From a bacterium (lineage in GTDB: Bacteria > Ratteibacteria > UBA8468 > B48-G9 > DSTR01), in assembly GCA_029551285.1 (NCBI GenBank), contig JAKPFT010000024.1, positions 1,317 through 65,316 of the forward strand: a DNA stretch of 64,000 bases, read 5' to 3'. The notes beneath the pieces are model-generated. The model had not been told where the DNA came from. It did not search any database and saw nothing but the letters and a program-made list of their open reading frames with translations. A program made the translations under genes and the position numbers. Shown here in pieces: positions 26,082 through 53,972 of the stretch. Every line of letters begins with the position of its first letter. Positions within the stretch are counted from its first letter, which is position 1.

Positions 26082-28316
26082 ATGTGGAGGAAAAATTGGT
26101 TGGTCTTGCTCGGGTTTTTGCTGCTCTCCGGTCGGGCCGATAGTGCAGAAAAGAGCCACTACTGGGAATTGGGCTGGGGTCTGTACGGCGGGGAAGGGCT
26201 GGACGCGGCCAGGTTTGACTGGCACATGGTTTGCTTCGGGAATATCCCGGCTGACCAGCGCACCGTGGATAGTCTGAACGAAATTCTGAAACTGAATCCA
26301 GAGCACAAACTTCTTATCCGGGTCTGGCCGATTGGAGGGCTGGGTGACTGTCCCGAGAACAGGTATCAGGCCACGCTTTTTCACTATCTTTATCAGCCGG
26401 GAGTCCGGGAGAAACTGCTGGCGGAAGCCAGACGCCAGGTGGAACTGGTTTGCCGGGGGGTAAGTCATCCGGAAAATGTTTACGGCTGCTGCTTCCTGGA
26501 GGAAATGCCAGGGCACTTCACTGGCGGCGGTTTTTCCCCTAACTGGAAGAAGGGCGACCCTCTGCCGTGGGATATGAAAAGATTTCAGAAGGAGATTGAA
26601 GCCGAACTGGGAGAACCGTTGGACTGGAGCAGTGAGAAACACCGGCTCTGGTGGGGGAAAAAGTACTGCGAGGTACTGAAGGAGATCAACCGCACCATCA
26701 AGGAGGCCAGCGGTGGCAAACCTGTTTTTTACTACCAGGCTACTGGCTACTATACCCTGGACCATCTTGATCTGCCCTTCGCTAAGGGAAAATCTCTTCA
26801 GGTGGTGCCGATTCGCTACCGGGACATTCTTCTGCCAGGGGTTTGTGATGGTATTTTTGGCTATCCCAATAACCAGGCCATCTGGGAGAATCAGACCCAG
26901 TCCATGGTGAATAAGTACCGGTGCCTGATGTTCAGCCAGTTGTCCATGCCGCCAGGGATGAGGCTGTGCCGGTTTGACGAAATGGTAATGTTATCCAGGT
27001 GGAAAAGCCCAGGCAATGTCGGAACTTTTCTCTACGGAACCCACGGACGAAAGCAGAAAGCCTGGAACGAACTGGAATATCAGGATGCTGATAGTTACTG
27101 GACGCTGACTGACCATATTCGGCACTTTGCCTGGACCCGCGGCATCGGGCTGGATGTGGTCAACCGGAACTTGAAACCGCGGCTGGGACTGGTCTATGAC
27201 CTGAGAAATCTGAAGAAGGGAGAGTTCGCCCATTTTCAGGTCCAGATTACCAATGTCAGGGAACCGTCCTGGTACGGCGGGAATGCCGAAGAGGCTACCC
27301 TGCGCAATGTCCGGGTAACCCTTTCCCTGCCGAAGGGTTTTGCTATCCCGGTCACTAACAACGCTTCTCCAACCCTGAATCTGGGAGACATCCCGGGGCA
27401 GTCAGTTAAGTTAGCCGACTGGTGGGTTCAGGCTGAGACTGACCGCCCGGTTATTTCCGCGCAGAAACCGGTAAGGATCACTGTGCAGGCCGGGGAAAGT
27501 CTTAAAGAAGAGACCGTGGCTACCGAACCGGCTGCCAGTCTTCCTTCTTTTGAGACCAGAGAAATCCGGCGTTCTGGCGAGAAGTGGGTTGAGCCTCTTT
27601 ATCACTGTGATAAGGTCCCATCCGTGGTGGAACTTCGGCCGTTGCAGGAGATTGTTAATCCGCAGTTAAAGTTGGGCCAGCGCGTGGCGACCTATCAGGG
27701 GGTGCTGGAGCCAGATGTGCGGCTGGTGATAGGACCAGGCGCCAGAGCCAGGCTTTACCCGGTGTCGCTTTTTGAAGAAAAGGCGGGAATTTTTCCGGTG
27801 ACGGCTGATGGTCCCGGCGTGTTCCAGAGCGGCTACATGGTCCACGGCACGCCGCCTGTGGTGGTCCGGCCAGGCAGAAAGTACCTTCTAACCCTGACCG
27901 GGTGGGCGAAGGAAGGTGGAAATTCCCTGGTCCTGGCCAGGTTTACCGGTCGGGTGAAAGGGAAAAAGCAACCGGAAATCAAAGATATTTCCTGCCTGGC
28001 CAACAGGTTCAGCGACACAGAAAAAACAATTTCTCAGGAGATTGAAGTACCGGAGTTTGAACAGGGCGATGTGACCCTGCGTCTGATGTTCTACCGCTTT
28101 CAGTCAAGGGGTGTGGTCTGTTACCGCAGTTTTGACCTGAAACGGGCTGACATTCCTGCTGAAGGGCAGGATGTCAGTTCCAGGCTTCAGGGTACGCTAC
28201 CTGATTTGACCTACCCCTTTACTGAGTGGACTTACCGGGATGTCTCTGACCCGGATAGGTACGGCAGACCAATTCTTAAATTGCGTTTTCTACCACAAGA
28301 CCAGGTAAGCGACTAA
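26082..28316 (+). CDS. Secreted hypothetical protein (possible glycosidase-like)
   Basis: ATG at 26082 preceded by GGGAGGG. Signal-like MWRKNWLVLLGFLLLSGRADSAE. Uninterrupted ~744-aa ORF. No family recognised. Confidence 0.75.
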   Translation: MWRKNWLVLLGFLLLSGRADSAEKSHYWELGWGLYGGEGLDAARFDWHMVCFGNIPADQRTVDSLNEILKLNPEHKLLIRVWPIGGLGDCPENRYQATLFHYLYQPGVREKLLAEARRQVELVCRGVSHPENVYGCCFLEEMPGHFTGGGFSPNWKKGDPLPWDMKRFQKEIEAELGEPLDWSSEKHRLWWGKKYCEVLKEINRTIKEASGGKPVFYYQATGYYTLDHLDLPFAKGKSLQVVPIRYRDILLPGVCDGIFGYPNNQAIWENQTQSMVNKYRCLMFSQLSMPPGMRLCRFDEMVMLSRWKSPGNVGTFLYGTHGRKQKAWNELEYQDADSYWTLTDHIRHFAWTRGIGLDVVNRNLKPRLGLVYDLRNLKKGEFAHFQVQITNVREPSWYGGNAEEATLRNVRVTLSLPKGFAIPVTNNASPTLNLGDIPGQSVKLADWWVQAETDRPVISAQKPVRITVQAGESLKEETVATEPAASLPSFETREIRRSGEKWVEPLYHCDKVPSVVELRPLQEIVNPQLKLGQRVATYQGVLEPDVRLVIGPGARARLYPVSLFEEKAGIFPVTADGPGVFQSGYMVHGTPPVVVRPGRKYLLTLTGWAKEGGNSLVLARFTGRVKGKKQPEIKDISCLANRFSDTEKTISQEIEVPEFEQGDVTLRLMFYRFQSRGVVCYRSFDLKRADIPAEGQDVSSRLQGTLPDLTYPFTEWTYRDVSDPDRYGRPILKLRFLPQDQVSD

Positions 28317-28628
28317 GGTAGTGTCAAAAAAGGATGAAAGAAGAGTGAAAAGAAAGGGAACAAACTGGCTCACTCAAGGTGCTCCGGCACAGACAAGAAC
28401 TACGCCGAAATCGGTCGCTCGGCGAACTCGCTCGCCATCTGGCGAGCTGGAGACACCGCCGAGTAAGGTATTGCGTCCCGGATGGACTTGTCCGGGCCGC
28501 TTACCGAGCGCTGCCGCTTTTCGTCTTGTCTTGTATCTGTGCCTTCGCAAATCGTTCGCCAGTTATTCCCTTCCTTTTTTGACAATGGAGAGAAAGCGGA
28601 GAGATAAGGAAAGGCAGAACCATTGACA
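28317..28628 (+). ncRNA. Structured intergenic element, copy 1 (candidate cis-acting RNA / structured repeat)
   Basis: Starts immediately after the TAA at 28314-16. Nested complementary segments are detailed in the findings. Near-identical copies lie at 35.1 and 39.5-40.1 kb. That it is a repeat is certain; RNA function is inferred. Confidence 0.6.
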
Positions 28629-28697
28629 GAAGCAAGAAAAGACAAAGAAAAGCTTTTATAAGTCTTTGACAGAACCGGGCTTTTAACAGGAGGCAAC

Positions 28698-29474
28698 ATG
28701 GTGACAAAAACCAGGCTGGTTTTCTCCGCAGTGGTTCTGCTGGCCGAAGTTCTTTGCTCAGCGGAGAAAAATTTAAGTTTTCCAGTTGGTATCTACTTTA
28801 ATCCGATAAGAGAAGAACCCAGGGCGGTCACTTACGGCTATGAAGGAGTGAGAATTGCCCTGGAGGAAAACGGGTTTGACGATGTCCGTTACATCAAATC
28901 TTTCCACCCGGAAGAACTAAAAGACATCCGGGTGCTCATCATTTCCTCAGTGCAACGTTATCCTTCTGCCTGGGATTTGAACCAGGTGCGAGAGCAGCAG
29001 AGAAAATTTGTAGAAACTGGTGGTGGGTTACTCCTCATCCATGAAGCCATCGGCTGGCGCGGCGTCTTCAAGGACAATCCAGTCTTCCAGGAAATCGGCC
29101 GCGGGGTCGCCTACGACGGGAAAACATTCGCGCCGGTTCAGGTAACCCCCCTGGTGGTAGTTGATAAAAACCATGCTATCACCAGGAATCTTCCGGAAAG
29201 CTTCGCCATGCAGTATGACTGCGCTCCGTTGAAGCCAGGCCCGAAAGGCAGGGTTTTGATTAAACTGGCTGACGAGGCCTATGTTCGGGGCCAGAAGGTC
29301 AAACTGGATAATCTGGCAGCGCTTATCGTGGGTGAACATGGCCGGGGACGGGTAGTGCTGATGGGTCCCTTAGTCGGTCTGGCGCGGCTTCCCCGGGAGA
29401 TGGAAAATCCTCCTCAGGGTGGCGAACTTCAGATGTTGCTCAACGCGGTGAAATGGGCGGCCGGCCTTGACTAA
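28698..29474 (+). CDS. Secreted hypothetical protein, possibly ThuA / class-I glutamine-amidotransferase-like fold
   Basis: Signal-like N-terminus. RVLIISS..GGGLLLIHEAIGW..GRVVLMG pattern. RBS AGGAGG before the ATG. The fold call is weak. Confidence 0.7.
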   Translation: MVTKTRLVFSAVVLLAEVLCSAEKNLSFPVGIYFNPIREEPRAVTYGYEGVRIALEENGFDDVRYIKSFHPEELKDIRVLIISSVQRYPSAWDLNQVREQQRKFVETGGGLLLIHEAIGWRGVFKDNPVFQEIGRGVAYDGKTFAPVQVTPLVVVDKNHAITRNLPESFAMQYDCAPLKPGPKGRVLIKLADEAYVRGQKVKLDNLAALIVGEHGRGRVVLMGPLVGLARLPREMENPPQGGELQMLLNAVKWAAGLD

Positions 29475-33991: not shown

Positions 33992-35113
33992 ATGCACAGG
34001 GGTAAAGCTCGGCCGCTTTATGCAGGTATCTACCTGGAACTGAAGGATAAAATCCAGCAGGGAAAACTTAAGGTTAACCAGCGGATGACCGAGCGGCAAC
34101 TGAGTCACCGGTACCAGGTCAGCCGGGTCACCATAAGAAAAGCCCTCTCCCTTTTAGTCAGAGAAGGTTATCTCCACCGCCTGCCTCGTCTGGGAACTTT
34201 TGTCACTTCCACTTCTTCGGCTCCTGGAATCTTCCCCGGCCGGTATAGCAATCATACCATTGGCATTCTCATTCCCTGTATCACCTTTTCCCTTTACGCC
34301 GGCATCGTCCGGGGCGCTGAAGATTTTCTTCTGACCCGGGATTACACCATTATGGTGGGCAGTTACGATGCTAATCCTGAGCGGGAAAAGTCATACCTGG
34401 AAAGATTTACCTGCCAGGGTATCTCCGGTCTGGTCATCGCTCCCAGTTACAATTCCAGGCCTGATGTTTATCTGGAGTTGCTGGTAAAAAGAAATATTCC
34501 CTTCGTCCTGGTGGATACTCCCCTGCCAGGGATTGACGCCGATGTGGTCCAGACCGACGGAGTGAAGGGCGGCTATCTGGGGACTAAACAATTGATTGAG
34601 ACTGGCTGCCAGAAGATTGCCTTCCTGTGCGGCCATCTGGGTCGCTGTTCCAACTCCTCTTTCCGGCTTCAGGGTTATCGCCAGGCCATCGTGGAAGCAG
34701 GTTTAGATTTCAATCCCGAACTTATCTTTGAAGGCGACTTCTCCAGAGAGTTCGGATACCAGACAGTAAAAAAACTGCTCTCCCGGGAAAGTATTGACGG
34801 TATCTTCTCAGCCAATGAACCCATTACCTTAGGGGTTCTGCAGGCAGTGAGCGAACTTCCTGATGACAGGCGGAAGGAAATTTTAGTAGTTTCCTTTGAC
34901 GAGATTTCCACGCCGGTTGAATATTCCAGCCCTTTAATGGTGGTGCGGCAACCGCGGATGATGATTGGCCAGGTAGCCGCTCAGATTCTGTTAGAGCGCA
35001 TTAAAGAAAAAAAGCGGCAGGAGAATTCTGCTTACCGGCAGATTTTCCTCTCCCCGGAATTGAATGGCTCCAGATTTCTGGAAAAAACGGTTTTCTCAGA
35101 GGTGAACGGCTAA
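33992..35113 (+). CDS. Transcriptional regulator: GntR-type winged HTH fused to a LacI/PBP1-type sugar-binding domain
   Basis: N-terminus has the GntR HTH signature ([41 protein letters not shown]). The C-terminal ~280 aa are periplasmic-binding-protein-like ([23 protein letters not shown]). Confidence 0.85.
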
Positions 35114-35427
35114 GGGTAGTGTCAAAAAAGGAAGAAACAAGAATGAAAAGAAAGGGAACAAACTGGCTCACTCAGAATGCTCCGGCACAGACAGGGACTA
35201 CGCCGAAATCGGTAGCTCGGCGAACTCGCTCGCCAGGGGGCGAGCTCAGACACCGCCGAGTAAGGTATTGCGTCCCGGATGGAATTGTCCGGTCCGCTTA
35301 CCGAGCGCTGCCGCTTTTCGTCTTGTCTTGTATCTGTGCCTTCGCAAATCGTTCGCCAGTTATTCCCTTCCTTTTCTGACAATGGAGAGGAAGCGGAGAG
35401 AGATAAGGAATGGCAGAACCATTGACA
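35114..35427 (+). ncRNA. Structured intergenic element, copy 2
   Basis: Starts immediately after the regulator TAA (35111-13). About 90% identical by eye to copy 1. Lies between the regulator and the pseudopilin-like operon. Confidence 0.6.
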
Positions 35428-35501
35428 GAATTAGAAAAGACAAAAAAGAATTGAAGTCCTTCACAGAACCAAGAAACAGGAGCCAACTATCAGGAGGAAA
35501 G

Positions 35502-36113
35502 ATGGAAAAGAAAGGATTTACGCTGATTGAGTTGCTGGTGGTCATTGCGATTATTGCGATTTTAGCCGCGATGCTGCTACCGGCTCTGTCGACGGCAAGA
35601 GAAAAGGTCAGGGAAGCCAGCTGCCTGAACAACCTCAAGCAGATTGGCCAGGCGATTCACATGTACCTTAATGATTATGAATTTTGCTGGTTCCAGTCAG
35701 GAGAAGCCGGCCGACAGCCGCGCTGGTATGACCCGTGGGTTTTGCCCAAATACTGCGGTGGCGGGACTGTAGCGACCAACAAAGTTTTTAAGTGCCCTTC
35801 TCATAGGCAGTGGCCTGTCTGGGGAACTCAGTCAAGTTACGCCATGAACTTTTATCTTGACCCAACCTACACCGGAATTCTCCACTCCGGACCTGACACC
35901 CTTAGCCGACGCGCCCATCTGGTAATCTTTGCTGACGGAAGCGGTAGCAATCATACCTTCTCTGGCAGCCATCTTACGCGTTTAGGACCCCGCCACACCA
36001 AAAGAGGTATTAACTTTCTTTATGTTGACGGCCATGTGCAGCTGGCCAGACCAGGAGATCTACCGGAGGATGTCTTTTTCGCCAATAATAGTAAGAAAAC
36101 CGTTGTCTGGTAA
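35502..36113 (+). CDS. Pseudopilin-like protein 1 (prepilin-type N-terminal methylation domain, DUF1559-like)
   Basis: MEKKG|[37 protein letters not shown] before the ATG at 35502; the track ORF from 35268 runs through the repeat element. C-terminal [11 protein letters not shown] motif. Confidence 0.9.
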
Positions 36114-36128
36114 AACGAGGAGGGAGAA

Positions 36129-36950
36129 ATGGAGAGAAAGAGTTCGGGCTTCACTTTAATTGAGTTGCTGGTGGTGGTAGCCATCATTGCTATTCTGGCC
36201 GCGATGTTGCTTCCGGTTCTGGGCAAAGTCCTGGAGAAGGCTTCCCGGTCGAACTGTCTTAACAACCTGAAGCAGATTTACCTCGCCTGCTGGATGTACG
36301 CCAGCGATTACGAAGACCGATTACCGGCTTTTGGTAGCGATTACACCACCTGGACAGCCAACGACAGTTATACCCTTCTATGCGGACGGGTTCCCAATGC
36401 CACCGGTCCAGGTAGTGTAATACCCAGATATATTGACAATCCGAATATTCTCCAGTGCCCCAGCCGGAAAAAAACTGCGTTTGATGTTAGTGTGCGCAAC
36501 GACCCGGCTCAGGCGTTCCGCCTTGGCAATCTTAACATTGGCTACACCATTGCCTCCGGTTTGCATATGCGGCGGGAACCCAACTACCGGGTGGTAGCCT
36601 GTGACCGAAAATGGAGTACCAGCACCAATGCTTGCACCGGTACAAGCCGGGGTAACGGCTGGTGCATCAACGGCTGGTATAATCAGCCCAGAGACAATGA
36701 CAGTACAAGGTTTTTCTCCAGCTCGGAAGGTATCCCCAACCACTGGCCGGACGGTCTAAATGTGGCTTACCTGGACGGCCATGTCGCCTGGGTGCCGATG
36801 GGGCCAATGATTGATGTTATCCCGCCAACTCAGCAATGGAACACCCATGTCCGCGGCTGGCATCTGGGGGCGGCGCCTGACCTTTCCAATCCCCAGATGG
36901 CTACCGCTTACACAAGCCCGAACGCCATTATGATGAGAGAGCCGTTCTGA
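36129..36950 (+). CDS. Pseudopilin-like protein 2 (DUF1559-like)
   Basis: MERKSSG|[24 protein letters not shown]; C-terminal [13 protein letters not shown]. Confidence 0.9.
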
Positions 36951-36968
36951 AAATGGAAAGGAGGAAAG

Positions 36969-37601
36969 ATGGAAAAGAAAGGATTTACGCTGATTGAGCT
37001 TCTGGTGGTCATTGCGATTATTGCGATTTTGGCCGCGATGTTGCTTCCGGCTCTGTCCAGGGCAAGAGAAAACGCCCGGCGGGCCAGCTGCGTGAATAAC
37101 ATGAGACAGATCGGTCTGGCCGTGGCCCAGTACTGTCAGGATTGGAACGGAAGTTTCCCGCAAAACACTTCGGGAGGAGACAATCCCGCCAACGCTTCCT
37201 GGTGCCGCCGTCTTTACCAGCAGGGCTACATCAAGGACAAGAAAATTGTCATCTGTCCTTCAGCCAGAAAATGGGGTACCTTTATGTTTAACTACGACAC
37301 CTGGAACGCTCCTTTAACCTACAGCGTACCAAGCTCGCCCAGTGAGGCCTATGCCGGCAACCTCAGCTTTGTCAGAGATACCTCCAAAGCAATTTACCTT
37401 CTGGAAGGGTACTGGTTTTACAACGGTGTTTATTATGGCTGGCACTGGGTGGGCAAGGTTACCAGCACCGCAAGCTGCCTGAACCCTGTTAGCGGCGACC
37501 GAAAACCCCATCCCAGGCATAACCTGAAACTGAATTTTCTCTTTATGGACAACCACGTGGAGTACCTGGCCGTGGAAGATATTGCCAATCTGGTCTGGTA
37601 G
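36969..37601 (+). CDS. Pseudopilin-like protein 3 (DUF1559-like)
   Basis: MEKKG|[24 protein letters not shown]; C-terminal [17 protein letters not shown] (DG replaced by DN). Confidence 0.9.
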
Positions 37602-37620
37602 TTGGAAAAAGGAGGCCGAG

Positions 37621-38382
37621 ATGAGAGGGAGAAAGGGTTTTACCCTGATTGAGCTGTTGGTGATTATTGCGATTATTGCCATCCTGGCAGCGATGCTTCT
37701 TCCAGCCCTGGAAAAGGCCAGGAAAAAAGCTGAGCAGGCAGCCTGTATGAATAACCTGAAACAATTAGGGCTCGCTTTGCGGATGTACTGGGATGACTGG
37801 GATGAGCGGATTATTCCCGCCTGGCTGGGAGCGCCGCCTGGCGGATTGGGTGCCCAGCCCCAGCCAAGAAGGCCGGCCATCTGCGAACTTCTCTATGTTA
37901 ATAACTACATCAACAACACCGAACTCTGCCGGTGTCCAGCCTGGGGATTTAAGAGAACCCGGTATCCCTATGAACCTAACCTTACCTGGGGATGGAGTGG
38001 AGCAGGCTACTATGCTGGAGGTACCAACCCGAATATCCCTGCCGCTGGCGTGTTCCTGTTTGTCTTTGACTACGGGTTTAACGGCATGTGGCCTGGCCAG
38101 GGTTCTGGTTTTGGCGACTGGAGTAAGAAGTTGAAGGATGTGCAGCGGCCTTCCCAGATTGTGGCTATGAGTGAAGCCAATGTTTCTGGCTATCTGGATA
38201 ACGCCTATTACAACAACACCTTTGCCGCTTTCACCAGGCCAGTCATCAGTCCTTCTTCCTATTATGGCCAGCCCTGGAAGGTACCCCTTCACCTCACAGG
38301 TTTCAACTATCTTTTCTTTGATGGCCATGTGGAATTCCTGTCCGCTCAACAGGCCTCAGACATCAGATACTGGATACCCTGA
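37621..38382 (+). CDS. Pseudopilin-like protein 4 (DUF1559-like)
   Basis: ATG at 37621 after AAAAAGGAGG. MRGRKG|[25 protein letters not shown]-terminal [12 protein letters not shown] (H-X9-DG). Confidence 0.9.
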
Positions 38383-39510
38383 ATGGTTGGTGCCAGAAGA
38401 ATCCCTGGAGATCTGAAGATAAAGGGTAACAGGAAGTTCTGCCTGACTGGAGTGTTGGTCCTTTTCTTCTGTTCCTGCCTTCAGGGAGCCGGCTGGCTTG
38501 ACCGGGCTTATCCCTGCCGGCAAAAAATCACCATCAGCGATGGTTTCTACCTCATCGGTTCGGACCTGAAAAACTTTCCGCTCCTGTTAGTTTTATCTGA
38601 CGGCAGCAACCCGCTTTTCCAGAAAGCGAAACCGGACGCTGCTGACATCACCTTCACCGCGGATGATGGAACCACCAGACTACCTCACGAGATAGAAATC
38701 TTTTCTCTCTCGCCGGCCAGGCTGGTCTGCTGGGTGGTCCTTCCTTTTCTTTACGCGGACCGGGAAACCGCCATTTATCTTTATTACGGTTCTTCCCAAC
38801 CCCTGGCTTGTCTGCCGGCTACGGATGTCTGGAAGGAAGGTTTTCTGGGTGTCTGGCACTTTCAGGACGCAGTGGCCCCGGATGGCAGAGCGGTGGCCGT
38901 CAAGAATTCTGCCGGAAAAACTCTGACCGGCCTGACTAATAGCAACTTCGCCGTTGAAGGAAAAATCGGCCAGGGGATGGCTGGCACAGTCAGTTTTGAC
39001 CGGAAGGATGGTCCGGAATTTACCCCGGAAACTTCTTTCAGCGCTGAGGCCTGGGCCTTCTGCAGCGAAGTACCCTTCCGGACAACGCTGTCGGTGCTGG
39101 GGAAGGGTTCCGGTGGCCGTGGCTGGTCGCTTTACTGGCATGAGGCTGGCCGGTGGCAGACCAATATCACCCATGACTACCGGAACGAAAACACCCGCTT
39201 TTACCTGATGGCACCTGACCAGCCAGCCGGTCAGTGGCGACATCTGGCGGTCACTTACGAAGCGGAAAGCAGAAAACTGCGACTTTTTGTTGACGGCCTG
39301 GAGAAAGCCTCAGGGAGAGTGCCAGACGGAATTAAGGAGTTTTCCGTGGCTTCACCTTTTTCTATCGGTGGAATTAAAGGAAGGATAGACGAAGTCAGAC
39401 TTTCTCAGGTAGCCCGTTCTCCAGACTGGGTGGCAGCCTGTGAAAAAAATCAGCGTCAGCCTGGCCGTTACATCCGGTTTGGAAAGGAAGAAGTTGTTAC
39501 TCATTCCTGA
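38383..39510 (+). CDS. DUF2341 plus LamG (concanavalin A-like lectin) domain protein
   Basis: N-terminal hydrophobic anchor. The DUF2341 pattern reads W..Y.CRQKITI..NFPLLLVL..DITFTADDGTTRLPHEIEIF..WVVLPF..IYLYYG. The C-terminal LamG-like segment reads WRHLAVTYEAESRKLRLFVDG..GRIDEVRLSQVARSPDWV. The ATG directly abuts the upstream stop. Confidence 0.85.
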   Translation: MVGARRIPGDLKIKGNRKFCLTGVLVLFFCSCLQGAGWLDRAYPCRQKITISDGFYLIGSDLKNFPLLLVLSDGSNPLFQKAKPDAADITFTADDGTTRLPHEIEIFSLSPARLVCWVVLPFLYADRETAIYLYYGSSQPLACLPATDVWKEGFLGVWHFQDAVAPDGRAVAVKNSAGKTLTGLTNSNFAVEGKIGQGMAGTVSFDRKDGPEFTPETSFSAEAWAFCSEVPFRTTLSVLGKGSGGRGWSLYWHEAGRWQTNITHDYRNENTRFYLMAPDQPAGQWRHLAVTYEAESRKLRLFVDGLEKASGRVPDGIKEFSVASPFSIGGIKGRIDEVRLSQVARSPDWVAACEKNQRQPGRYIRFGKEEVVTHS

Positions 39511-39517
39511 AAGGAAA

Positions 39518-39826
39518 AAGTAGTGTCAAAAAAGGAATGAAAGAAGAATGAAAAGAAAGGGAACGAACTGGCTCACTCAGAATGCTTCGGCACAGACAAG
39601 GACTACGCCGAAATCGGTTGCCCGGCGAACTCGCTCGCCATCTGGCGAGCTCAGACACCGCCGAGTAAGGTATTGCATCCCGGATGGACTTGTCCGGTCC
39701 GCTTACCGAGCGCGTGCGCTTTTCGTCTTGTCTTGTAGCTGTGCCTTCGCAAATCGTTCGCCAGCTGTCCCCTTCCTTTTTTGACACAGTGGAAAGGAGA
39801 GGGAGAGAGACAAGGACAGGCAGAAC
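39518..39826 (+). ncRNA. Structured intergenic element, copy 3 (first unit of a tandem pair)
   Basis: Conserved GTAGTGTC begins 9 nt after the TGA at 39508-10. Has a perfect 16-bp terminal complement, GTGTCAAAAAAGGAAT.. / ..CTTCCTTTTTTGACAC. Confidence 0.6.
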
Positions 39827-40134
39827 CAAAAAAGGAATAAAAGAGGAATGAAAAGAAAGGGAACGAACTGGCTCACTCAAGGTGCTTCGGCACAGACAAG
39901 GACTACGCCGAAATCGGTTGCTCGGCGAACTCGCTCGCCCGGGGGCGAGCTCATACACCGCCGAGTAAGGTATTGCGTCCCGGATGGACTAGTCCGGTCC
40001 GCCTACCGAACGCGTGCGCTTTTCGTCTTGTCTTGTATCTGTGCCTTCGCCAATCGTTCGCCAGCTGTCCCCTTCCTTTTTTGACAGTGGGGGGAGGAAG
40101 ATCGGGAAGATAAGGACAGGCAGAACCATTGACA
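39827..40134 (+). ncRNA. Structured intergenic element, copy 4 (second unit of the tandem pair)
   Basis: Exactly 300 nt downstream of copy 3 (TTGACA at 39781 and 40081; ATGAAAAGAAAGGGAAC at 39548 and 39848). Its 5' end lacks the GTAGTGTC segment. Confidence 0.6.
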
Positions 40135-40201
40135 GGCATAAGAAGACACTAAAAAACAACTCAACATTCTTGACAGGCCAAGAGAAACCTGGAGGCAGAA
40201 A

Positions 40202-45056: not shown

Positions 45057-47411
45057 ATGAGCATGAAAAAAACTGTATTTTTCTTTCTGCTAACTGCAAC
45101 CCTGGTCCCGGGTCAGGAGGCTTCTCTAAGCCTCACCATTGACTCCCTGAAAGGTATTTACCTTGCGGCGCCGTTAGGCGAGGTGGAGCAGGAAACAGTT
45201 TCTTTTCTTCAGGAAGGTTTCCAGAAGTTTTACCAGGTTTCCCTGCCCCTTCTTTCTGAAAGTCTTCCCGAGCCAGTAGTGGTGCTTGGCCGAGCCGCGG
45301 CCCTGAAAGAAAAACTGGTCAGCGAATCCGAGCTGGAAGCCCTCAGGCCGGACGGCTACCTCATCCGGACCAGCCGTCAACGTCTGGTGATCGCCGGAGC
45401 AGACTCCTGGGCAACCTACTATGGAGTAGTGGGGTTTTTCCAGCAAGCCGGGGCAAAATTTTTCCGGGCCATCGCCGGAAAGTTCAAACCCTGGCCCTGG
45501 TTCCAGGTACCCTTTCCGGAAAATCCGGAGAGAAAAATTTCCCTTTCCCTGAAGGAGAAACCTGTCTTTGCCTACCGCTGTGGTGGGTGTCCTGTCTTCC
45601 GGCAGAGCCGGCTGGCTGACCCGAAGAAAGGCGCTACCCCGGAAATTTTTGATGCTGCTAAAACCGGTTCTAATCTGTGGATTGACCACACGGCCGGGTA
45701 CCTGGTGCCGAAACTTCTTTATTACGACCAGCATCCCGAGTACTACGCCATGGGCAAGGACGGTAAAAGAATTGCCAAAAACGGCTTCAATGACCATCAA
45801 ACTCCCCTTTGCCTTTCCCATCCTGATGTCACTAAAATCTCCATTGAGAGAGCCTTAGCCTGGATTGAGAAAAATCCGCACGAACGTTTCTTCATGATTA
45901 CCTACGGTGATACCAACTTCTGGTGTCAGTGCCCGGAATGCCTGAAGATGGACCCGGTCCCAGGGCAATACGCCACCAGACTTCTCACCTGGGTCAACGC
46001 CATCGCCAGGGAAGTAGCCAGGCGTTACCCGGACAAAATCCTGATTACCTTTGCCTATGCTGGTTCCGATACCGCGCCACCCGGGATCAGACCGGAACCA
46101 AATGTGTGGGTTTGTGGTTCCACGGGCCTGGGGAATCTTCCCTTCTGGGACCACGCTTTTGCCGGTGAGCCACCAGACTGGCTGAAGCAGAATATGGCCA
46201 AGGTTGATGGCTGGTTGAAAATTGCTCCCCACCAGTATCTGGTTTGCGAATACTTAAGCAACGTCTATCTTCCAGCCATGCTGGATACCACTGCTTCCAG
46301 ATTAAAGACTTACGGTAAAAAAGGATTGCGCGGAGTCCTTTTTACTTACGGGGCTCCAGCCAATTTCCGCAGCCTCTGGAATTATCTCTGGGGTCAGTTG
46401 ATGTGGAACCCGGACCAGGATGTGGAACAGCTCACCCGGGAGTTTCTAACTTTTGCCTATCCGGCTGCGGCCGAGCCGCTTTTCAGGTTTTTCCAGCTCA
46501 GCCGCCAGCGTTACCAGGAAACCCTGAAGGAGAAAGCCGGACTGGACCAGATGTATCCGAAGGGATACTACCAGGCTAAGTTTGTTCAGGAAGCCCTGAC
46601 CTGCTTTCAACAGGCTGAGGAAAAACTGGCCAAAGAAAATGCCCTGCTGAAAGAAATCCAGAATGAAGAAGCCCTGTTTCTGCAGAGCGTGTTAGAACAT
46701 CCCCCTGCACTGCAGTTGACTGAAGAACTGAGAAAAATTGTGGCTCTCGGCTTTAACCGGCTCAGTGCCCTGGGAAAAGCCACCGGCAAAACCGCTGACT
46801 TCTTAAGCCGTGTTAACAGCCTGGCGCTTGATGTTGAAAGAAGAATTCCCGGATACCGAGAGCTGATAGAAGAAGTTTTTGGTCAGTTGCCTGAAGGACA
46901 GCCGGTAAAACTTGCTGACGGCTTGCGGCTACCGCCGGAAATGTTTCTCCGGGCCGATTTAGGACCGACAACCAGCGCCGACTGGGTGCATCCTGACTAC
47001 AAGTTTCCCCCGAAGACTTACGTGGGGGTGCTGCAGTCAGCCAGGGACTCCCGGGGCCGGCCAACCAGTTCCGTGATGGTGGCAAAATTCAAACTGCTGG
47101 AGAAAATCTCTGGTCCGGCTACCCTGGAATTGGAAGGTCAGGACGCTATTACCAAATGGGCGGCTGGCAATCAGCGGGCAATGAGTTTTCAGGCCGCCAT
47201 GAAAATCAGCCTCAACGACCAGGAAATCTATTCCGGTCCGGCTGGTTTTGTCCGGGGCAACTGGTCACGCCGCAGTTTCCAGATTAAACCTGGAATTCTT
47301 CAGGCAGGAGAAAACACTCTAAAAATCGCCAATATCAGCCAGGGATGGGCCTTTTCCACCTGTTACCTGTTAATCAGCGATGCGGTACTGAGATGGGGTC
47401 AGTCCAATTAA
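45057..47411 (+). CDS. DUF4838-family glycan-active protein, paralog 1
   Basis: Signal peptide. GH20b-like N-domain (LVIAGADSWATYYGVVGFFQQAGAKFF). HPEYYAM; Cys cluster FWCQCPECLKMD; MWNPDQDVEQLTREF. C-terminal beta-sandwich-like tail. Confidence 0.85.
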   Translation: MSMKKTVFFFLLTATLVPGQEASLSLTIDSLKGIYLAAPLGEVEQETVSFLQEGFQKFYQVSLPLLSESLPEPVVVLGRAAALKEKLVSESELEALRPDGYLIRTSRQRLVIAGADSWATYYGVVGFFQQAGAKFFRAIAGKFKPWPWFQVPFPENPERKISLSLKEKPVFAYRCGGCPVFRQSRLADPKKGATPEIFDAAKTGSNLWIDHTAGYLVPKLLYYDQHPEYYAMGKDGKRIAKNGFNDHQTPLCLSHPDVTKISIERALAWIEKNPHERFFMITYGDTNFWCQCPECLKMDPVPGQYATRLLTWVNAIAREVARRYPDKILITFAYAGSDTAPPGIRPEPNVWVCGSTGLGNLPFWDHAFAGEPPDWLKQNMAKVDGWLKIAPHQYLVCEYLSNVYLPAMLDTTASRLKTYGKKGLRGVLFTYGAPANFRSLWNYLWGQLMWNPDQDVEQLTREFLTFAYPAAAEPLFRFFQLSRQRYQETLKEKAGLDQMYPKGYYQAKFVQEALTCFQQAEEKLAKENALLKEIQNEEALFLQSVLEHPPALQLTEELRKIVALGFNRLSALGKATGKTADFLSRVNSLALDVERRIPGYRELIEEVFGQLPEGQPVKLADGLRLPPEMFLRADLGPTTSADWVHPDYKFPPKTYVGVLQSARDSRGRPTSSVMVAKFKLLEKISGPATLELEGQDAITKWAAGNQRAMSFQAAMKISLNDQEIYSGPAGFVRGNWSRRSFQIKPGILQAGENTLKIANISQGWAFSTCYLLISDAVLRWGQSN

Positions 47412-47424
47412 CGAAGGAGAAAAA

Positions 47425-50250
47425 ATGGCGAGAAAAATGCTAATGCTGCTTCTGGTTTCCCTGATAGTCTCGGGAAACCTTTACTCTCTGGAAAAGGTGC
47501 TGGTTCTGGAAGACTGCCAGAGCAACCGCTGGCAGGGAAAAGGTGCACCACAGACCTGTCAGTACCAGCCACCTCTTGGCCAGGCAAGGCCGGGACTAAA
47601 GGTAAGTTTGCCAGCCGACATTTTCCTTCCTCTGGAGGCTAACTTAGAAGGAGCCGGCAGTCTGGCCTTACGCGCTGCTTACCAAAATCCGGTGAAAATC
47701 ATTCTGAGAATAAAAAGCGGGGAAGGCAATTTTTCCGTTCAGTTTTCCGCTGGTCCGGGTGAAGAGGTTGTTCTTCTTCCCCTGGGTGTCTTTGAACGGG
47801 CAGCCAGCACAGCCGGCTGGGAAAAAATTGACGGGATACAAATCCTGGCCGAAACTGACTCTCAGGCGAAAACCACCGGTTTCACCTTGCTGGGCCTTCA
47901 GGTCCTGCCGCCGACAACCACGGTGGCTGGCGAAGAGCTTTTCCTGGTGCGGCCGGTCAATAGAATCAATCCAGTTGGACACGCCTGGCCACTTTACGCC
48001 ATTCTGTCGGAAGCAGTCTATCCGGAGAAAACAGAGCAATCTCCACCGGTCTTGCAACGGTTGTTGAAGGAAATGTACGGTCTCACTCTGCCGGTCAACC
48101 CGAAAACACTCTCCGCTGCCCAAGGAATTAAAAATGTGATCCTGATGGGTCCGGAAGCGGCCCTCAAATCCGGTACAGTGAGCCGGACTCAACTGGAAGA
48201 ACTGGGCTATTTTGGCCTTTTCGTGAAAGCGGAAGACGGCTTGGTGACGATTGCCGGCCTTAACCGGCACGGCACCGCCTATGGCACCTATGCTTTCTTA
48301 GAAAAACAGGGCTGCCGCTTTTTCGGTGGAAACTGCCAGCAGATTCCACGGAAAGAAGAGAAAGTAGTTCTTGCCTGTCAGTTCCAGGACAAGCCCTTCT
48401 TTCCTGGACCGCGCATCGGGCCAGGCTATGAAATTTACGGAGCGCCCTCTGACGCCTGGGGACTGGCTAACAAGGCTGAAAACCAGGAGTTTTTCACTGA
48501 CATCTCCTGGGGATGGCGGGAACATACCGCCGGCTACCTGGTTCCCAGACAACTTTACTACGACAAACACCCTGAGTATTTCCGTCTTCAAGGAGATGGC
48601 ACCCGGTTACCGAAGGATACCAGCAATTTTCGTACTGTGATCTGTACCACCCATCCTGATGTCCTGAAGATTTCTGCCGAACGCGCCCTGAGATGGATTG
48701 GCCTGCAGCCTGACCGGAAGTTTTTCTCCATCACTCAGGGGGATGACCATGAGTGGTGCCGTTGTCCCCGCTGCCGCTCCATGGAGTACCAGAGTGGTAA
48801 TTACAGTGATATGATGCTTTACTGGGTTAACTATGTTGCCAGAGCGGTGGCGAAAAAGTATCCGGACAAAGTGCTGATTACTTACGCCTATGGTCCCACC
48901 CAGCCACCGCCGGTCAAGCTGAAACCGGAGCCCAATGTTTACGTTTTTTACTGCGCCTGGCCGAATGCCACTTCTGCGCCCTGTGGCATCCGGGACTTTG
49001 ACGCTCCGGAAAACTATCTGGCCAAACACGAAATTGAAGGCTGGCTCAAGGTGGCTCCTGGCCGGGTGGGACTTTACGACTACAACGCTTACGGCTGCTA
49101 CACCTTAAACGGGATGGCCTGGAAGGTTAAATGGTGCGCCCGTCGCAACATGTGCGGCTTTATGTATTGCGGAATCAACCAGTCCTTTCAGCCGCTGTTC
49201 CGCTATGTCCACTCCAAACTGAACTGGAATCCCTTGCTGGAAGTAGCAACCCTGAAGCATGATTTTATTTACGCTTATTACGGTGCCGCGGCACCGGTGA
49301 TGGAAAAAATTATCAACTCCATCTATGACCGGATTGAGTACGGTCACTATGATAGCCGTATGCACGGGGTTCCGCCGGCTGACTACTGGAGCAAACCTTT
49401 TGTTACAGAAACCCTGGCCCTTTTTGACCAGGCTATCTCGCTTTTGCCTGGGGACCGCCGGGGATTAACAAGCGAGGTAATTAAGGACCGAAACTGGTTT
49501 GTGGATAACTGCCTGGCCGCGACCAGACCAGCCGGCCGGAAATATACAGAGGAAGAACTGGAAGTCTTCGCTCTCTGCCTGAAGGAATACATCGCCAGAT
49601 GGCTGGCTGAACACGCTGAACAGGTAAACAAGGCCTGGAAAGAGAAGAAAAAAGCCCCTGGCTATGAGGAAATCGCCAGCAAACTCTGGAACTGGGCCAG
49701 AATCAAGGTGGAAACTGACCTGCCGGAAAACGAGGTGCCGCCTGTCCTGACAAGGTTGATGACTAACCCGGTGGAAACCATTAAGAAGGAGATGGTCACG
49801 AATTTTGTAGAAAAAATCCCGGACGGCTTACGTATCAGCGCTCACGCCTTCACCGGTGGCCAGGTGTGGTCAAAATACGGCTGGCTGTGTGAACCTAAGG
49901 ATGGGGCCATCGTGCGGGGAACAATGACAGAATTTTCCCGGATGCAGGCCAGATTCACCCTGGACCGGTTACCGCCAGGAGAAAAGGCTTTTCTGGAAAT
50001 AGAAGGACAGGATAGCGATAAGTACTGGTGCCAGCCGGTTCCCATTCAGATTCTGGTCAATGGCAGGAAGGTTTTTGAAGGACGCAACGGCTTCGTCAAA
50101 AGAGGATGGTCCCGTCAGACCTTTCCTCTGCCTGAAAATGTCCTGAAAACAGGCGAAAATGTGATTGAAATTCGCAACTTGGCCAACAGCGACAGTCTGA
50201 TTTCCCACTGGGTAATTATCCATGAGGTACTGGTAAAATTTCGCCACTGA
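47425..50250 (+). CDS. DUF4838-family glycan-active protein, paralog 2
   Basis: Signal peptide; VTIAGLNRHGTAYGTYAFLEKQGCRFF; HPEYFRL; EWCRCPRCRSME; LNWNPLLEVATLKHDF. Confidence 0.85.
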   Translation: MARKMLMLLLVSLIVSGNLYSLEKVLVLEDCQSNRWQGKGAPQTCQYQPPLGQARPGLKVSLPADIFLPLEANLEGAGSLALRAAYQNPVKIILRIKSGEGNFSVQFSAGPGEEVVLLPLGVFERAASTAGWEKIDGIQILAETDSQAKTTGFTLLGLQVLPPTTTVAGEELFLVRPVNRINPVGHAWPLYAILSEAVYPEKTEQSPPVLQRLLKEMYGLTLPVNPKTLSAAQGIKNVILMGPEAALKSGTVSRTQLEELGYFGLFVKAEDGLVTIAGLNRHGTAYGTYAFLEKQGCRFFGGNCQQIPRKEEKVVLACQFQDKPFFPGPRIGPGYEIYGAPSDAWGLANKAENQEFFTDISWGWREHTAGYLVPRQLYYDKHPEYFRLQGDGTRLPKDTSNFRTVICTTHPDVLKISAERALRWIGLQPDRKFFSITQGDDHEWCRCPRCRSMEYQSGNYSDMMLYWVNYVARAVAKKYPDKVLITYAYGPTQPPPVKLKPEPNVYVFYCAWPNATSAPCGIRDFDAPENYLAKHEIEGWLKVAPGRVGLYDYNAYGCYTLNGMAWKVKWCARRNMCGFMYCGINQSFQPLFRYVHSKLNWNPLLEVATLKHDFIYAYYGAAAPVMEKIINSIYDRIEYGHYDSRMHGVPPADYWSKPFVTETLALFDQAISLLPGDRRGLTSEVIKDRNWFVDNCLAATRPAGRKYTEEELEVFALCLKEYIARWLAEHAEQVNKAWKEKKKAPGYEEIASKLWNWARIKVETDLPENEVPPVLTRLMTNPVETIKKEMVTNFVEKIPDGLRISAHAFTGGQVWSKYGWLCEPKDGAIVRGTMTEFSRMQARFTLDRLPPGEKAFLEIEGQDSDKYWCQPVPIQILVNGRKVFEGRNGFVKRGWSRQTFPLPENVLKTGENVIEIRNLANSDSLISHWVIIHEVLVKFRH

Positions 50251-50262
50251 AAAGGAGACCCG

Positions 50263-53200
50263 ATGAAGACAAGAACAATCCTGATACTATTACTGGTCAT
50301 GGCTTCTGGCCTGGCTGCCTTTGACCTGCGGACGCTGAAGTCTATCCAGGTGGCTCAGCCAGTGGCCTGGCCGGAAAAAGAGGCCGCGGAAGAGTTAAAC
50401 CGGAGATTGAAATCCCTTTTGGCGCTGGAAGTCCCCATTGCCACCGGGCCGGTGCAGACCTCAGAACCAGCCATTTTCGTAGGACGAGAAGCCGCCACCG
50501 CTTCCGGCCTGGTCAGCAAGGACGAACTGGAAGCCCTCAGGTACGATGGTTACCTGGTCAGGATTTCCCCCTCGGGAATTGCCCTGGCCGGGTACCGTGC
50601 CAGGGGAACTCTTTATGCAACTTATGCTCTCCTGGAAAAAATGGGGCTAAAACTCTACCCGGGTCACCGCTCTTTAGGAACTATAGAAAGTATTCCCCGG
50701 ATAATGCCGACCTCCCTGCCTGAAGGCAGTTTCTCTTCCAGACCTTTTTTTGAATACCGCAGTCTCCTGGACTACCTTGACCGGGGAATGTTTGGAGGTT
50801 CCTGGCAGGACCTGGGTAATCCCCAGGAAGCCGCCAATCAGGAAATTCTTGGCCGGCAGGCACAAAAAACCTGGTTGCCAGGCGAGTGGCTGGGCAGTGA
50901 CCATACGGCCGCCTACCTGGTGCCGAAACAACTGTACTACGACAGCCACCCGGAATACTTTGCCGTCTCTGGCGGGAAACGGTTGCCCCGGGAAACTCTG
51001 ATGCAGAGAATGTCTCTTTGCCTGAGCAATCCTGAGGTTCACCGGATTGCTGCAGAAAGAATGCTGGAGTGGATGAATCTTCAGAACGACAGGAGGTTTT
51101 TCTACTGTACCGACGCTGACGCTGATGCCTGTCGCTGCGCGCAGTGCCTGGCCTTAGATTACTTCCATTACTACTGCACAGACCGTAACCTGGCCTGGGT
51201 TAATTCGGTGGCCAGCGCGGTGGCTAAAGCCCATCCGGAAAAAAGACTTTTTGCCTTCGCCTATGGTCCGACGGTGAAACCGCCGGTTAAGGAGAAACCA
51301 GCCGCCAACGTCATTGTGCTTTACTGTCCCTGGTACTGGAGCTCAGCAGGGGTGCGCTATGCTTCCTGGGCTCACCCTAAAAACATCACGGCCATGGAAG
51401 AATTCATGGGCTGGGCAATGAAGTTTCCTGACCAGATGGGTGTTTATGACTACCCGGGACATGGCGCCTGTCTCTGGCTGGCCGGCCATATAGACCGGGT
51501 CAAGTGGTATGCCAGGAATCGGGTAAGAACAGTTTACTGCTGTGGCACACCCACGCTCTTTGACGGTCTCTTTCTCTATGTCATCAGCCGCCTGAACTGG
51601 GATCCCTACCTTGACTCGGAAAAGCTGATAGAGGAATACGTCAGGGTAGCCTACGGCCAGGCTGCCCCACCAGTTTTGCAGTATCTTGAGTTAGACCGCG
51701 AATTAGCCACTTCCGGCCCAGGTCACATCCTTGCTGATAAGGAACATATGAGGCTGGGAAGAAATCTTCTGAGACAGGCCTGGCAGCTGGCCAGTAAGGA
51801 TTCTGCGGAGGTACAGTGTAAGTTAGCCTTTGACATCCTTACCTTCCTTACCGACCGCTTTTCTTACTTTGCCCCCCGGCGTCAGAGTTCTCTCTCCGAG
51901 CAGGAGATCCGGGAATATCAGGAAGATGTTATCTGGTATCTCAACAGCAGCCATCTTCTTATGGCCGAGGCACTCCGGAGAAAAAGTCAATGGCTGAAAA
52001 ATTCCCTGGAAAAGCAAATGAAGGAAACCCTGGAGTCCCTTAACCTGAAGTACGAAGAAATCGTGGAGGACCCGGCCAGGGATAAGAAGGAACCGCCTAC
52101 TCCGGAACAGATTAACAGCCGTATCATTGTCCATCCTGAAGTCATCATCAAAGAGCTATCACCAAAGTTAGAGCCGCCTTCAGAACGTCGTCTGGTCCCT
52201 ATCGTTGACCCTGCCCGGGAAAAGGAGGTACAGCCCTGGTCAGTGGAGTCAACCCTTCCGGAAACGGCCAGCAGCCCCGTCAAAAAATTATCTCAGGTCA
52301 ACCCGGGACAGTCGGTTCCTGCCGTCAGCGTCAGCCTCCCTTTGACTAAACTGCCCAGTTTTCACCTGCCCATTTCAGAAAAAGGAAAGAAAACTATTCG
52401 GGCCGGTTCCTTTGCTCTGGTTAAGAAATTAGCCACTCCGGTAAATATCTCCGGATGCGATTTCGTCGAGTTTCACCTGGCCAGTTCTACCAGTGTGCCG
52501 GCCACCTTTTACCTTGACCTCACCGGCATTACCGGGGTGCGCAGCGACATCCTTCTTCATCCCGGCGAGCAGATTGTCAGAATGGATTTAAGACAGCATG
52601 CCGCTTGCGCCTGGGCCAGGCAAAAAGAAAAATGGGACGGGACTATCTCCGGAGTGAAAATTGAATTCTGGCCCCAGGACAATTTTTATCCCCATCCTGA
52701 GGTTAAAGATGCAGAAGTACAACTGCTGAGTGTTTCTGCCATGAACTATTCCCACCAGCCATCAGATTTGCCCTATCAGGGGAAGGTCGTCTGGCTAACG
52801 CAGTTTCGGCCCAACCTCACCTATAATCTACCTGTGCCCAGGCAACTGTGGCGGAAACGACCCAACAAGACAGCCGATAGAGATAATTATGAAGGCGAAC
52901 GGTTCCGCACTTTCACGGCTGACCGGTGTCTGACACCGCTGCGGGCTATTCTGACCGGCCAGGGGGTTTCCCCGGCGGAAGTCAGAGCCGCCGAAGCCTT
53001 ACAAGCCTATCTGAAGAAACTCTTCGGAATAACCCTGCCTATAAATCCACCAGGCGCAAGCATTGACGGCCAGACGGGCAATGCCTTCCTGCTGGGCCAG
53101 GCGGCCGCTCTGGCCAGCCAGCGGGTCAGCCGGGAAGAACTCCAGTTTGCAGGACCTGAAGGCTTTGTTATCCGGGCCCACCAGGGTGTAGTAATTATTG

Positions 53201-53613
53201 CCGGTCTATCACCTGAAGGTACCGCTTACGGGGTCGCCCGGTATCTGGAAGACCACGGCGTCAGGTTCTTCCAGCCAGAGACCAGGGAAAAACTGCCGGA
53301 TTTAAGCGCTGCTTTCCTGCACGAACTCTACCTTCTGGACTGGCCTTACCTTTCCAGAAAAGGCTTAACGGCTGGCTGGCAGCTTGGCTGTCAGAACGCT
53401 TACCAGCCGGCTCCTTCTTCAGGAAGTCCGGCTGAGGTGGAAAAAATTGCCGAAGCCATTAAGGACTGCTGCCGGAAAAATCAGTCAGTTCCGGAGGAAC
53501 TCTTCAGCCAGGCTACCACATCCAACTTAGGCCTGTATGTAGCCGCCAAACTTCTCTGGAATCCTTTTCTGGATACCAGCCGGCTCATCAGGGAATTTGA
53601 AGAGAAAAAATAA
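50263..53613 (+). CDS. DUF4838-family glycan-active protein, paralog 3, with a degenerate second unit at the C-terminus
   Basis: Signal peptide; IALAGYRARGTLYATYALLEKMGLKLY; HPEYFAV; ACRCAQCLALD; LNWDPYLDSEKLIEEY. The last ~225 aa repeat the N-domain (VIIAGLSPEGTAYGVARYLEDHGVRFF) and the terminal LLWNPFLDTSRLIREF segment, but lack the Cys-cluster core. Confidence 0.85.
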   Translation: MKTRTILILLLVMASGLAAFDLRTLKSIQVAQPVAWPEKEAAEELNRRLKSLLALEVPIATGPVQTSEPAIFVGREAATASGLVSKDELEALRYDGYLVRISPSGIALAGYRARGTLYATYALLEKMGLKLYPGHRSLGTIESIPRIMPTSLPEGSFSSRPFFEYRSLLDYLDRGMFGGSWQDLGNPQEAANQEILGRQAQKTWLPGEWLGSDHTAAYLVPKQLYYDSHPEYFAVSGGKRLPRETLMQRMSLCLSNPEVHRIAAERMLEWMNLQNDRRFFYCTDADADACRCAQCLALDYFHYYCTDRNLAWVNSVASAVAKAHPEKRLFAFAYGPTVKPPVKEKPAANVIVLYCPWYWSSAGVRYASWAHPKNITAMEEFMGWAMKFPDQMGVYDYPGHGACLWLAGHIDRVKWYARNRVRTVYCCGTPTLFDGLFLYVISRLNWDPYLDSEKLIEEYVRVAYGQAAPPVLQYLELDRELATSGPGHILADKEHMRLGRNLLRQAWQLASKDSAEVQCKLAFDILTFLTDRFSYFAPRRQSSLSEQEIREYQEDVIWYLNSSHLLMAEALRRKSQWLKNSLEKQMKETLESLNLKYEEIVEDPARDKKEPPTPEQINSRIIVHPEVIIKELSPKLEPPSERRLVPIVDPAREKEVQPWSVESTLPETASSPVKKLSQVNPGQSVPAVSVSLPLTKLPSFHLPISEKGKKTIRAGSFALVKKLATPVNISGCDFVEFHLASSTSVPATFYLDLTGITGVRSDILLHPGEQIVRMDLRQHAACAWARQKEKWDGTISGVKIEFWPQDNFYPHPEVKDAEVQLLSVSAMNYSHQPSDLPYQGKVVWLTQFRPNLTYNLPVPRQLWRKRPNKTADRDNYEGERFRTFTADRCLTPLRAILTGQGVSPAEVRAAEALQAYLKKLFGITLPINPPGASIDGQTGNAFLLGQAAALASQRVSREELQFAGPEGFVIRAHQGVVIIAGLSPEGTAYGVARYLEDHGVRFFQPETREKLPDLSAAFLHELYLLDWPYLSRKGLTAGWQLGCQNAYQPAPSSGSPAEVEKIAEAIKDCCRKNQSVPEELFSQATTSNLGLYVAAKLLWNPFLDTSRLIREFEEKK

Positions 53614-53681
53614 GTCCGTTGGGTTGGAAAGGTGACTGGCACTGAATAAACCAAACCCGTACTAAAATTCCGACTAGTGAA

Positions 53682-53930: not shown

Positions 53931-53972
53931 CCTGGTTCTTATGTCGAAATTTTGGAAATCCGTGAGCCTGAC

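Follow-up and report, generated by a model that had tools for sequence, protein, structure and literature searches.

A folded, modular repeat family of BOX-like organisation, probably a non-autonomous MITE, upstream of unrelated genes in an uncultured digester bacterium

BOX elements are composites of boxA, tandem boxB and boxC modules whose transcripts fold; in S. suis the same boxB is found between either of two different end-module pairs (PMC3049150). In the BrickBuilt MITE of P. gingivalis a tandem repeat lies between a leader and a tail, and the ends are small inverted repeats (PMC4596501). In the Correia (NEMIS), ERIC/IRU and BIME repeats, RNA folds change the processing, stability or read-through of host mRNAs (PMC3049150), and for the IS6/IS26 and IS1 families ends of the form GGnnnTG are reported together with an 8-bp duplication (PMC6807381).

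The repeat family described here occurs in the 64,000-nucleotide stretch of DNA that we analysed (the window) and in related metagenome contigs. Its likeness to the BOX elements of S. pneumoniae and S. suis is one of architecture alone, with an end module, a variable number of tandem internal modules and another end module; the hosts are unrelated and the modules differ in size. Both are intergenic and non-coding, with extensive predicted RNA folding and co-transcription with neighbouring genes, the latter being probable for the present family, and the S. suis end-module pairs are paralleled by two subfamilies here (PMC3049150). The internal module of the present family is ~300 nt long and multi-branched, compared to ~45 nt for boxB, and its strict co-orientation, distance of 19–23 nt to the start codon and clear ~8-bp duplications set it apart. 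With BrickBuilt it shares the order of leader, tandem repeat and tail, small inverted-repeat ends, restriction to a species, an always intergenic position and tens of copies (PMC4596501). BrickBuilt, however, has a 23-nt repeat unit, lies 49–591 nt from coding sequences with no fixed spacing and has promoter activity in both directions, whereas no promoter-like site is found in the present element. Like the Correia, ERIC and BIME repeats it is a small non-coding repeat with inverted ends inserted in intergenic regions that are transcribed (probably so in the present case), but those are simple hairpins or palindromes of 35–155 nt, compared to a 265-nt multi-helix body and tandem amplification here. 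Two features recall the IS6/IS26 and IS1 families: GGTAGTG and GGTTCTG, the outer ends, have the form GGnnnTG, and the duplication is ~8 bp long. One of the two subfamilies, however, has unrelated ends and longer duplications (7–11 bp). The family is small (<~600 bp per unit), non-coding and dispersed, and has terminal inverted repeats, target-site duplications and an empty site. Since the core features of MITEs are present, apart from a partner IS, which is not found in the ~380 kb searched, we assign it to the known class of composite MITEs and conclude that it is probably a new, lineage-specific, non-autonomous modular MITE with BOX-like organisation, inserted upstream of many unrelated genes.

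Four + strand copies with 88–92% mutual identity lie at ~28317–28628, 35114–35427, 39518–39826 and 39827–40134 of the window. A direct-repeat search places them at 28325–28596, 35122–35393, 39527–39798 and 39827–40098, alignment adds a fifth, diverged copy at ~53682–53942, and a 24-base pattern with gaps, derived from the conserved core, finds exactly these five sites in the window versus none expected. The five + strand copies proposed in a sequence-only reading of this DNA are thus all present. That reading had traced the structured part; the repeated units are longer, with a purine-rich spacer and a conserved tail that end at 28676, 35470 and 40179, and an outer 18-nt inverted repeat of copy 5 had been missed. 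The stop codons upstream are TAA (28314–28316), TAA (35111–35113) and TGA (39508–39510), and copies 1, 2 and 3 begin 1, 2 and 10 nt later. The features are as follows.

28317–28676, + strand: copy 1, a complete main-type unit
28317–28328, + strand: left end of copy 1, GGTAGTGTCAAA
about 28322–28584, + strand: structured body of copy 1
between the body and the right end, + strand: purine-rich spacer of copy 1, terminating in GGCAGAACC, then the tail
28665–28676, + strand: right end of copy 1, TTTGACAGAACC
28677–28684, + strand: GGGCTTTT, right-hand copy of the 8-bp target-site duplication of copy 1 (8/8 in locus L001)
35115–35470, + strand: copy 2, a complete main-type unit between a GntR/LacI-type regulator gene and the first prepilin-like DUF1559 gene (ATG at 35502)
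39520–40179, + strand: copies 3 and 4, an array in which two ~300-nt modules in tandem share one tail
39520–39819 and 39820–40128: the two array modules, with the junction GGCAGAACC/AAAAAAGG; the tail occupies 40129–40179
53662–53955, + strand: copy 5, second subfamily, 294 nt, with 18-nt terminal inverted repeats CTAAAATTCCGACTAGTG ... CTTATGTCGAAATTTTGG
53653–53661 and 53956–53965, + strand: degenerate target-site duplication of copy 5 (7/8), AAACCCGTA on the left and AAATCCGTGA on the right
28400–28699, − strand: 99-aa ORF annotated by public gene callers across copy 1, judged spurious; no Pfam match

Several neighbouring genes of the window are themselves repeated. Directly 3′ of copy 2 (35502–38382) there are four tandem paralogous genes that carry a prepilin-type N-terminal methylation motif and the beginning of DUF1559 (repeat family D2). 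Three large tandem paralogues with DUF4838 and GH67-N-like domains (45057–53613; repeat families D3 and D4) sit in a CAZyme-rich locus with GH2, sulfatase and ThuA genes.

Alignment separates two subfamilies, the main type and the copy 5 type. In the main type, GGTAGTGTCAAA forms the left end. It is followed by tandem ~300-nt modules, numbering from one to at least five, then by a tail of ~55 nt and by TTTGACAGAACC as the right end. Each module comprises a ~265-nt multi-branched fold and a purine-rich spacer finishing in GGCAGAACC. The left boundary is sharp at (G)GTAGTGTCAAAAAAGG, upstream of which the flanks are unrelated between loci, and internal modules begin GCAGAACCAAAAAAGG. The tail after the last module is conserved (...GGCAGAACCATTGACAGAAACAAGAAAAGACTAAAAAACAACTTGAAGTCTTTGACAGAACC), with conservation reaching ...GACAGAACC. 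The tandem period is 296–302 nt, with up to four or five copies in tandem at some loci; units of the family as a whole measure 294–360 nt. In reverse complement (GGTTCTGTCAAA), the main-type right end imperfectly repeats the left end (GGTAGTGTCAAA), with 11 of 14 positions matching in copy 1 and 9 of 14 in copy 2. The copy 5 type is 294–295 nt long and contains the same ~170-nt core with a different 5′ domain, which includes a cUUCGg hairpin, and it is closed by the 18-nt terminal inverted repeats CTRAAATTCCGACATAAG...CTTATGTCGGAATTTYAG. The ends of the two subfamilies, the GGTAGTGTCAAA type and the CTRAAATTCCGACAT type, are unrelated. That two vehicles with unrelated ends share the ~170-nt core suggests that the core itself is under selection. 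As a separate observation, each main-type module opens with AAAAAAGGAATAAAAGAGGAATG (e.g. 39529–39556 in the window), in which a Shine-Dalgarno-like GAGG is followed by an ATG or GTG ~20 nt past the preceding GGCAGAACC, a spacing that resembles that between the right end and the real start codon.

The search of related metagenomes that the sequence-only reading had proposed yielded 45 loci besides the window (numbered with an L below). All of them come from sister samples of anaerobic digesters, and many lie at the ends of contigs. An nhmmer profile search over the window and the recovered loci gives 80 hits, representing 41 distinct full-length copies. The window itself comes from an anaerobic-digester metagenome population; its ThuA gene recurs in identical form on several contigs of sister samples and on the JGI contig Ga0116245_10000402, and a ThuA homologue with 70% identity belongs to “candidate division TA06 bacterium ADurb.Bin417”. 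Scanning GTDB species representatives with the 24-base gapped pattern produced two hits, in Gemmatimonadales and Sulfotelmatobacter, which we reject as chance matches in coding DNA with no similarity beyond the anchors. Viral contigs gave no match in the same kind of scan, nor did plasmid and phage collections in blastn searches. The covariance models of Rfam 15 give no hits at gathering thresholds across the 64-kb window and nothing credible in permissive searches (E ≤ 10 for copy 1, E ≤ 1 for copy 5), in line with the sequence-only reading, which had recognised no riboswitch, leader or sRNA family in the element.

All these sequences are short-read metagenome assemblies, in which array sizes may be collapsed or inflated and some junctions mis-assembled. 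The same downstream operon, with genes of 186, 346, 250, 219 and 383 aa, is preceded by two modules in L028 (3051–3627) and by at least four in L022 (6226–7402); either the module number varies here in the manner of a VNTR or the difference is an artefact of assembly. From position 28325 onwards, L001 and the window are 99.8% identical. Upstream of that (L001 1–2627) they are unrelated, L001 having a GATase gene and one additional module, the window a 748-aa ORF. The differing upstream neighbour of copy 1 is due either to strains recombining at the repeat or to a chimeric join through it.

Direct repeats of ~8 bp abut both ends of the whole main-type unit in several loci. In L001 the duplication GGGCTTTT matches at all eight positions; its left-hand copy is kept in L001 and absent from the window, which has a different upstream neighbour. 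Seven of eight positions match in L014 (TGATTAAA/TGATTACA by eye; CGTGATTA/CCTGATTA in the positions read by the script), L017 (GTTTAGCC/GTTTTGCC), L037 (GGTTGCGG/GGTTGCAG) and L052 (AGGCAGGG/GGGCAGGG). With one mismatch allowed, such matches occur in 6 of 12 main-type units (permutation p = 0.0046); five of the six matches lie exactly at the right end, and the sixth, at the copy 3–4 array of the window, overlaps the start codon of the gene and was rejected as a target duplication for that reason. An exact k-mer, position-blind duplication test, which was run first, gave no signal. Duplications are clear in only about half of the complete main-type units; in the others, copies 1–3 of the window among them, they are absent or degenerate. 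For the copy 5 type, a perfect 11/11 duplication (AAACCCCGATG) abuts both ends of the element in L034, compared to 7/8 for copy 5 itself.

A sister species, whose ThuA is 74% identical, retains the gene order 1039-aa gene, GATase, ThuA, Metallophos and DUF4838 and provides an empty-site reference. Its GATase and ThuA genes overlap by 4 nt (ATGA; L054–L056, 5315–6771), and its 12.7-kb stretch, recovered from three samples, contains no repeat copy in any of them; the loci of the next ThuA homologue are free of copies too. At the GATase–ThuA junction of L001 two modules and a tail are inserted. Removal of this insertion and of one copy of the duplication restores ...GGC TTT TAA, with the stop codon 14 nt before the ThuA ATG. 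No autonomous IS or transposase with matching ends, and no solo ends, are found in the ~380 kb of the window and recovered loci. The sequence-only reading had held that copies at random positions and orientations, with target-site duplications and no covariation, would make the family a plain MITE. Inverted ends, duplications and an empty orthologous site are indeed found, but the placement and orientation of the copies are strongly non-random, and there are some compensatory changes.

A co-oriented ORF follows 26 of the 27 distinct arrays, starting within 40–153 nt. In 18 of 20 cases the main-type right end lies 19–23 nt before the start codon, with the Shine-Dalgarno sequence starting 13–14 nt past the end; the copy 3–4 array, for example, ends 22 nt upstream of the GH2 gene ATG at 40202. 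Upstream neighbours are co-directional or divergent, and the stop codon of a co-directional neighbour often touches the element or is supplied by its GGTAG. Many main-type insertions lie in very tight operon junctions, where purifying selection alone would fix the insertion position, but the 19–23 nt spacing persists where the non-coding region is long (L017, L035 and L031+L051, the latter probably the ribH locus). Such strict co-orientation and fixed spacing are atypical for MITEs. The downstream genes are functionally unrelated and encode ThuA, prepilin-like DUF1559, GH2, lumazine synthase, class IV aminotransferase, DHDPS family, ZnuA, thioredoxin-like, ExbB, Gfo/Idh/MocA, RidA-like, GspE and LTXXQ proteins, which makes a ligand-specific riboswitch very unlikely.

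The co-orientation and the position of the right end ~13 nt upstream of the Shine-Dalgarno sequence indicate that the main type, in operon junctions and 5′ leaders, is probably co-transcribed as part of the mRNA leader. In L031 a sigma-70-like promoter, TTGCCA-17-TAGAAT, points into an array 24 nt downstream, which would place the main type inside a long leader transcript. The 110-nt gap that lies there between a divergent gene and the three-module array contains back-to-back divergent sigma-70-like promoters (L031 3499–3549), CTGGCA-17-TATAAT on the − strand and TTGCCA-17-TAGAAT on the + strand. Copy 5 type elements are found upstream of promoters, as in L046, where a perfect TTGACA-17-TATAAT lies 14 nt past the element. 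A promoter scan finds no promoter-like sites within or between modules, and terminator-like sites are at chance level. Promoters picked by hand upstream of L018 and downstream of copy 5 of the window were not confirmed by the scan, and recurring TTGACA motifs were rejected as –35 boxes, having no –10 partner and lying too near the Shine-Dalgarno sequence.

Folding of copy 1 recovers the nested helices of the sequence-only reading, with a minimum free energy of –115.5 kcal/mol (z = –4.8). When this structure is placed on a 40-sequence alignment, 89% of cells are paired, compared to ~40% for slid partners. As the same reading had noted, the hairpin loops vary between copies (ATCT, AGGG, CGGG, TTCT) and the stems are retained. 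Covariation across the copies, which are close relatives, is real but modest: nine pairs change on both sides, compared to 4.3 ± 1.2 in shuffles. Most of these belong to the hairpin GCUCGCC/GGCGAGC, to the arm GUAAGG...CUUAC and to the long-range helix CACAG/CUGUG. Although the fold is conserved, the strand evidence does not favour a + strand RNA. The − strand folds better in 37 of 40 copies (mean –111.7 versus –102.9 kcal/mol for the + strand), with mixed preferences among copy 5 type copies. Departures from Watson-Crick consensus pairs in the main subfamily are more often A·C (18 positions) than G·U (11), so an enrichment of G·U over A·C, as evidence of a + strand RNA, finds no support. A tail hairpin seen by eye (AAAGACU/AGUCUUU) is too A/U-rich and variable to claim.

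The evidence speaks in several ways for a host-selected, cis-acting structured leader RNA, in which the ~170-nt core would be a functional domain acting in translation initiation, mRNA stability or processive antitermination, and mobility the means of its spread. The core is conserved across subfamilies with unrelated peripheries and ends, compensatory changes occur in two of the hairpins (b and c) and the long-range helix, the copy 5 type has a cUUCGg loop, and co-orientation, near-fixed spacing to the Shine-Dalgarno sequence and ATG, and the L031 promoter upstream of an array all suit a leader; with no Rfam match, such an RNA would be new. The size of 170–270 nt, the multiple helices, the intergenic position and the compensatory changes also recall structured RNAs in Rfam such as OLE, raiA, HEARO and EAR, but the present element matches no covariance model, has an incoherent gene association, is found in one population and carries inverted ends and duplications. 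The downstream genes have no common function, one to at least five tandem copies would be odd for a sensor domain, the copy 5 type in L046 lies upstream of a promoter and thus outside the leader, the − strand is better folded with A·C departures exceeding G·U, and the sister species lacks the element. We therefore consider this reading unlikely, though deserving of some weight. What stands of the cis-acting RNA family first proposed is an element that is real, non-coding, highly structured and absent from Rfam, with the main type very probably within transcripts; a dedicated cis-acting RNA is not supported, given the inverted ends, duplications, empty site, unrelated downstream genes, variable tandem number and modest covariation. 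The MITE reading has difficulties of its own in the lack of an autonomous IS with matching ends in ~380 kb, the clear duplications in only about half of the complete main-type units, the strict co-orientation and spacing even next to long non-coding regions, the occurrence of the same core in two vehicles and the excess of two-sided pair changes. A further reading, which we hold to be rather improbable, is that of a mobile leader module with fixed-orientation insertion ~13 nt upstream of the Shine-Dalgarno sequence. The ~170-nt RNA core, in the leaders of dozens of unrelated genes, would then form a genome-wide post-transcriptional layer, and would have been captured by two unrelated vehicles as the selected cargo. 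To our knowledge, target selection close to ribosome-binding sites is not described for bacterial transposons.

The head-to-tail arrangement with a regular period of 296–302 nt and the stable folds might also suggest that each ~300-nt unit is a separate sRNA gene, promoter and terminator included, in a tandem series of the NsiR1 or LhrC kind. This is very improbable, as no sigma-70-like promoter is found and terminators are at chance in or between units in a host that uses canonical promoters, single units have sharp ends and duplications, and the purine-rich spacer between units lacks a compact hairpin followed by a U-tract. A comparably poor candidate is a DNA-level recombination site that bounds gene cassettes, as in integrons (attC) or shufflons, with the fold acting in single-stranded DNA. 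Integron attC sites are imperfect palindromes of 57–141 nt at the 3′ ends of single-gene cassettes, beside an intI integrase gene. Copies that start directly after the stops of co-directional genes, folding of both strands and the different upstream neighbours of the same downstream operon in the window and L001 would agree with such a site. The element, however, is unlike attC in sequence and in size (265–300 nt plus tail, 265–360 nt in all), lies in multi-gene contexts and also between divergent genes, and the proteins scanned around its arrays include no integrase or recombinase. The neighbour differences are accounted for by homologous recombination between repeats or by chimeric assembly, and the flanking duplications point to transposition rather than site-specific recombination. 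The least probable reading is a small protein, for which there are 86–101 aa ORFs on the + strand of copies 1 and 2, starting from the GTG in GGTAGTG, and the 99-aa ORF on the − strand, where one frame is stop-free in 23 of 40 copies. On the + strand, any one frame is open in at most 6 of the 40 copies, the frequently open − strand frame is due to the pyrimidine-rich composition, frame-shifting 1-nt indels are frequent, and variation by codon position (100/146/162) shows no periodicity. One such indel, CTGGAGAC in copy 1 versus CT-CAGAC, had been pointed out from the sequence and is real, and the judgement then made that a conserved peptide is unlikely holds, as no frame is conserved. The 99-aa ORF across copy 1 was rejected as spurious on the same grounds, together with the lack of a Pfam match.

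We thus favour a modular MITE, for which the following course of events may be proposed. A DDE transposase supplied in trans would have inserted the element, leaving ~8-bp target duplications; the GGnnnTG ends and the 8-bp duplication would be compatible with a transposase of the IS6/IS26 or IS1 family. The module may then have been amplified locally into tandem arrays, with recombination homogenising the copies. A second subfamily, the copy 5 type, carries the same ~170-nt core between unrelated 18-nt inverted repeats. Main-type copies are retained only in operon junctions and 5′ leaders, pointing with the downstream gene, and this orientation bias could be due to selection against a polar orientation or to an oriented choice of target. 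The folded RNA probably alters the stability, processing or read-through of the host transcript, as that of BOX, ERIC, BIME and Correia elements does.

This repeat family breaks short-read assemblies and may produce chimeric joins, and it attracts spurious ORF calls and can be mistaken for a novel riboswitch-like RNA. It also offers a clear case in which the large folded module of a probable MITE is tandem-amplified in mRNA leaders and operon junctions; the host is an uncultured digester bacterium with relatives among MAGs labelled candidate division TA06. The orientation and the spacing of 19–23 nt raise the question of whether a bacterial transposon may choose its targets by translation-start signals or whether, alternatively, only those insertions survive that form a working leader.
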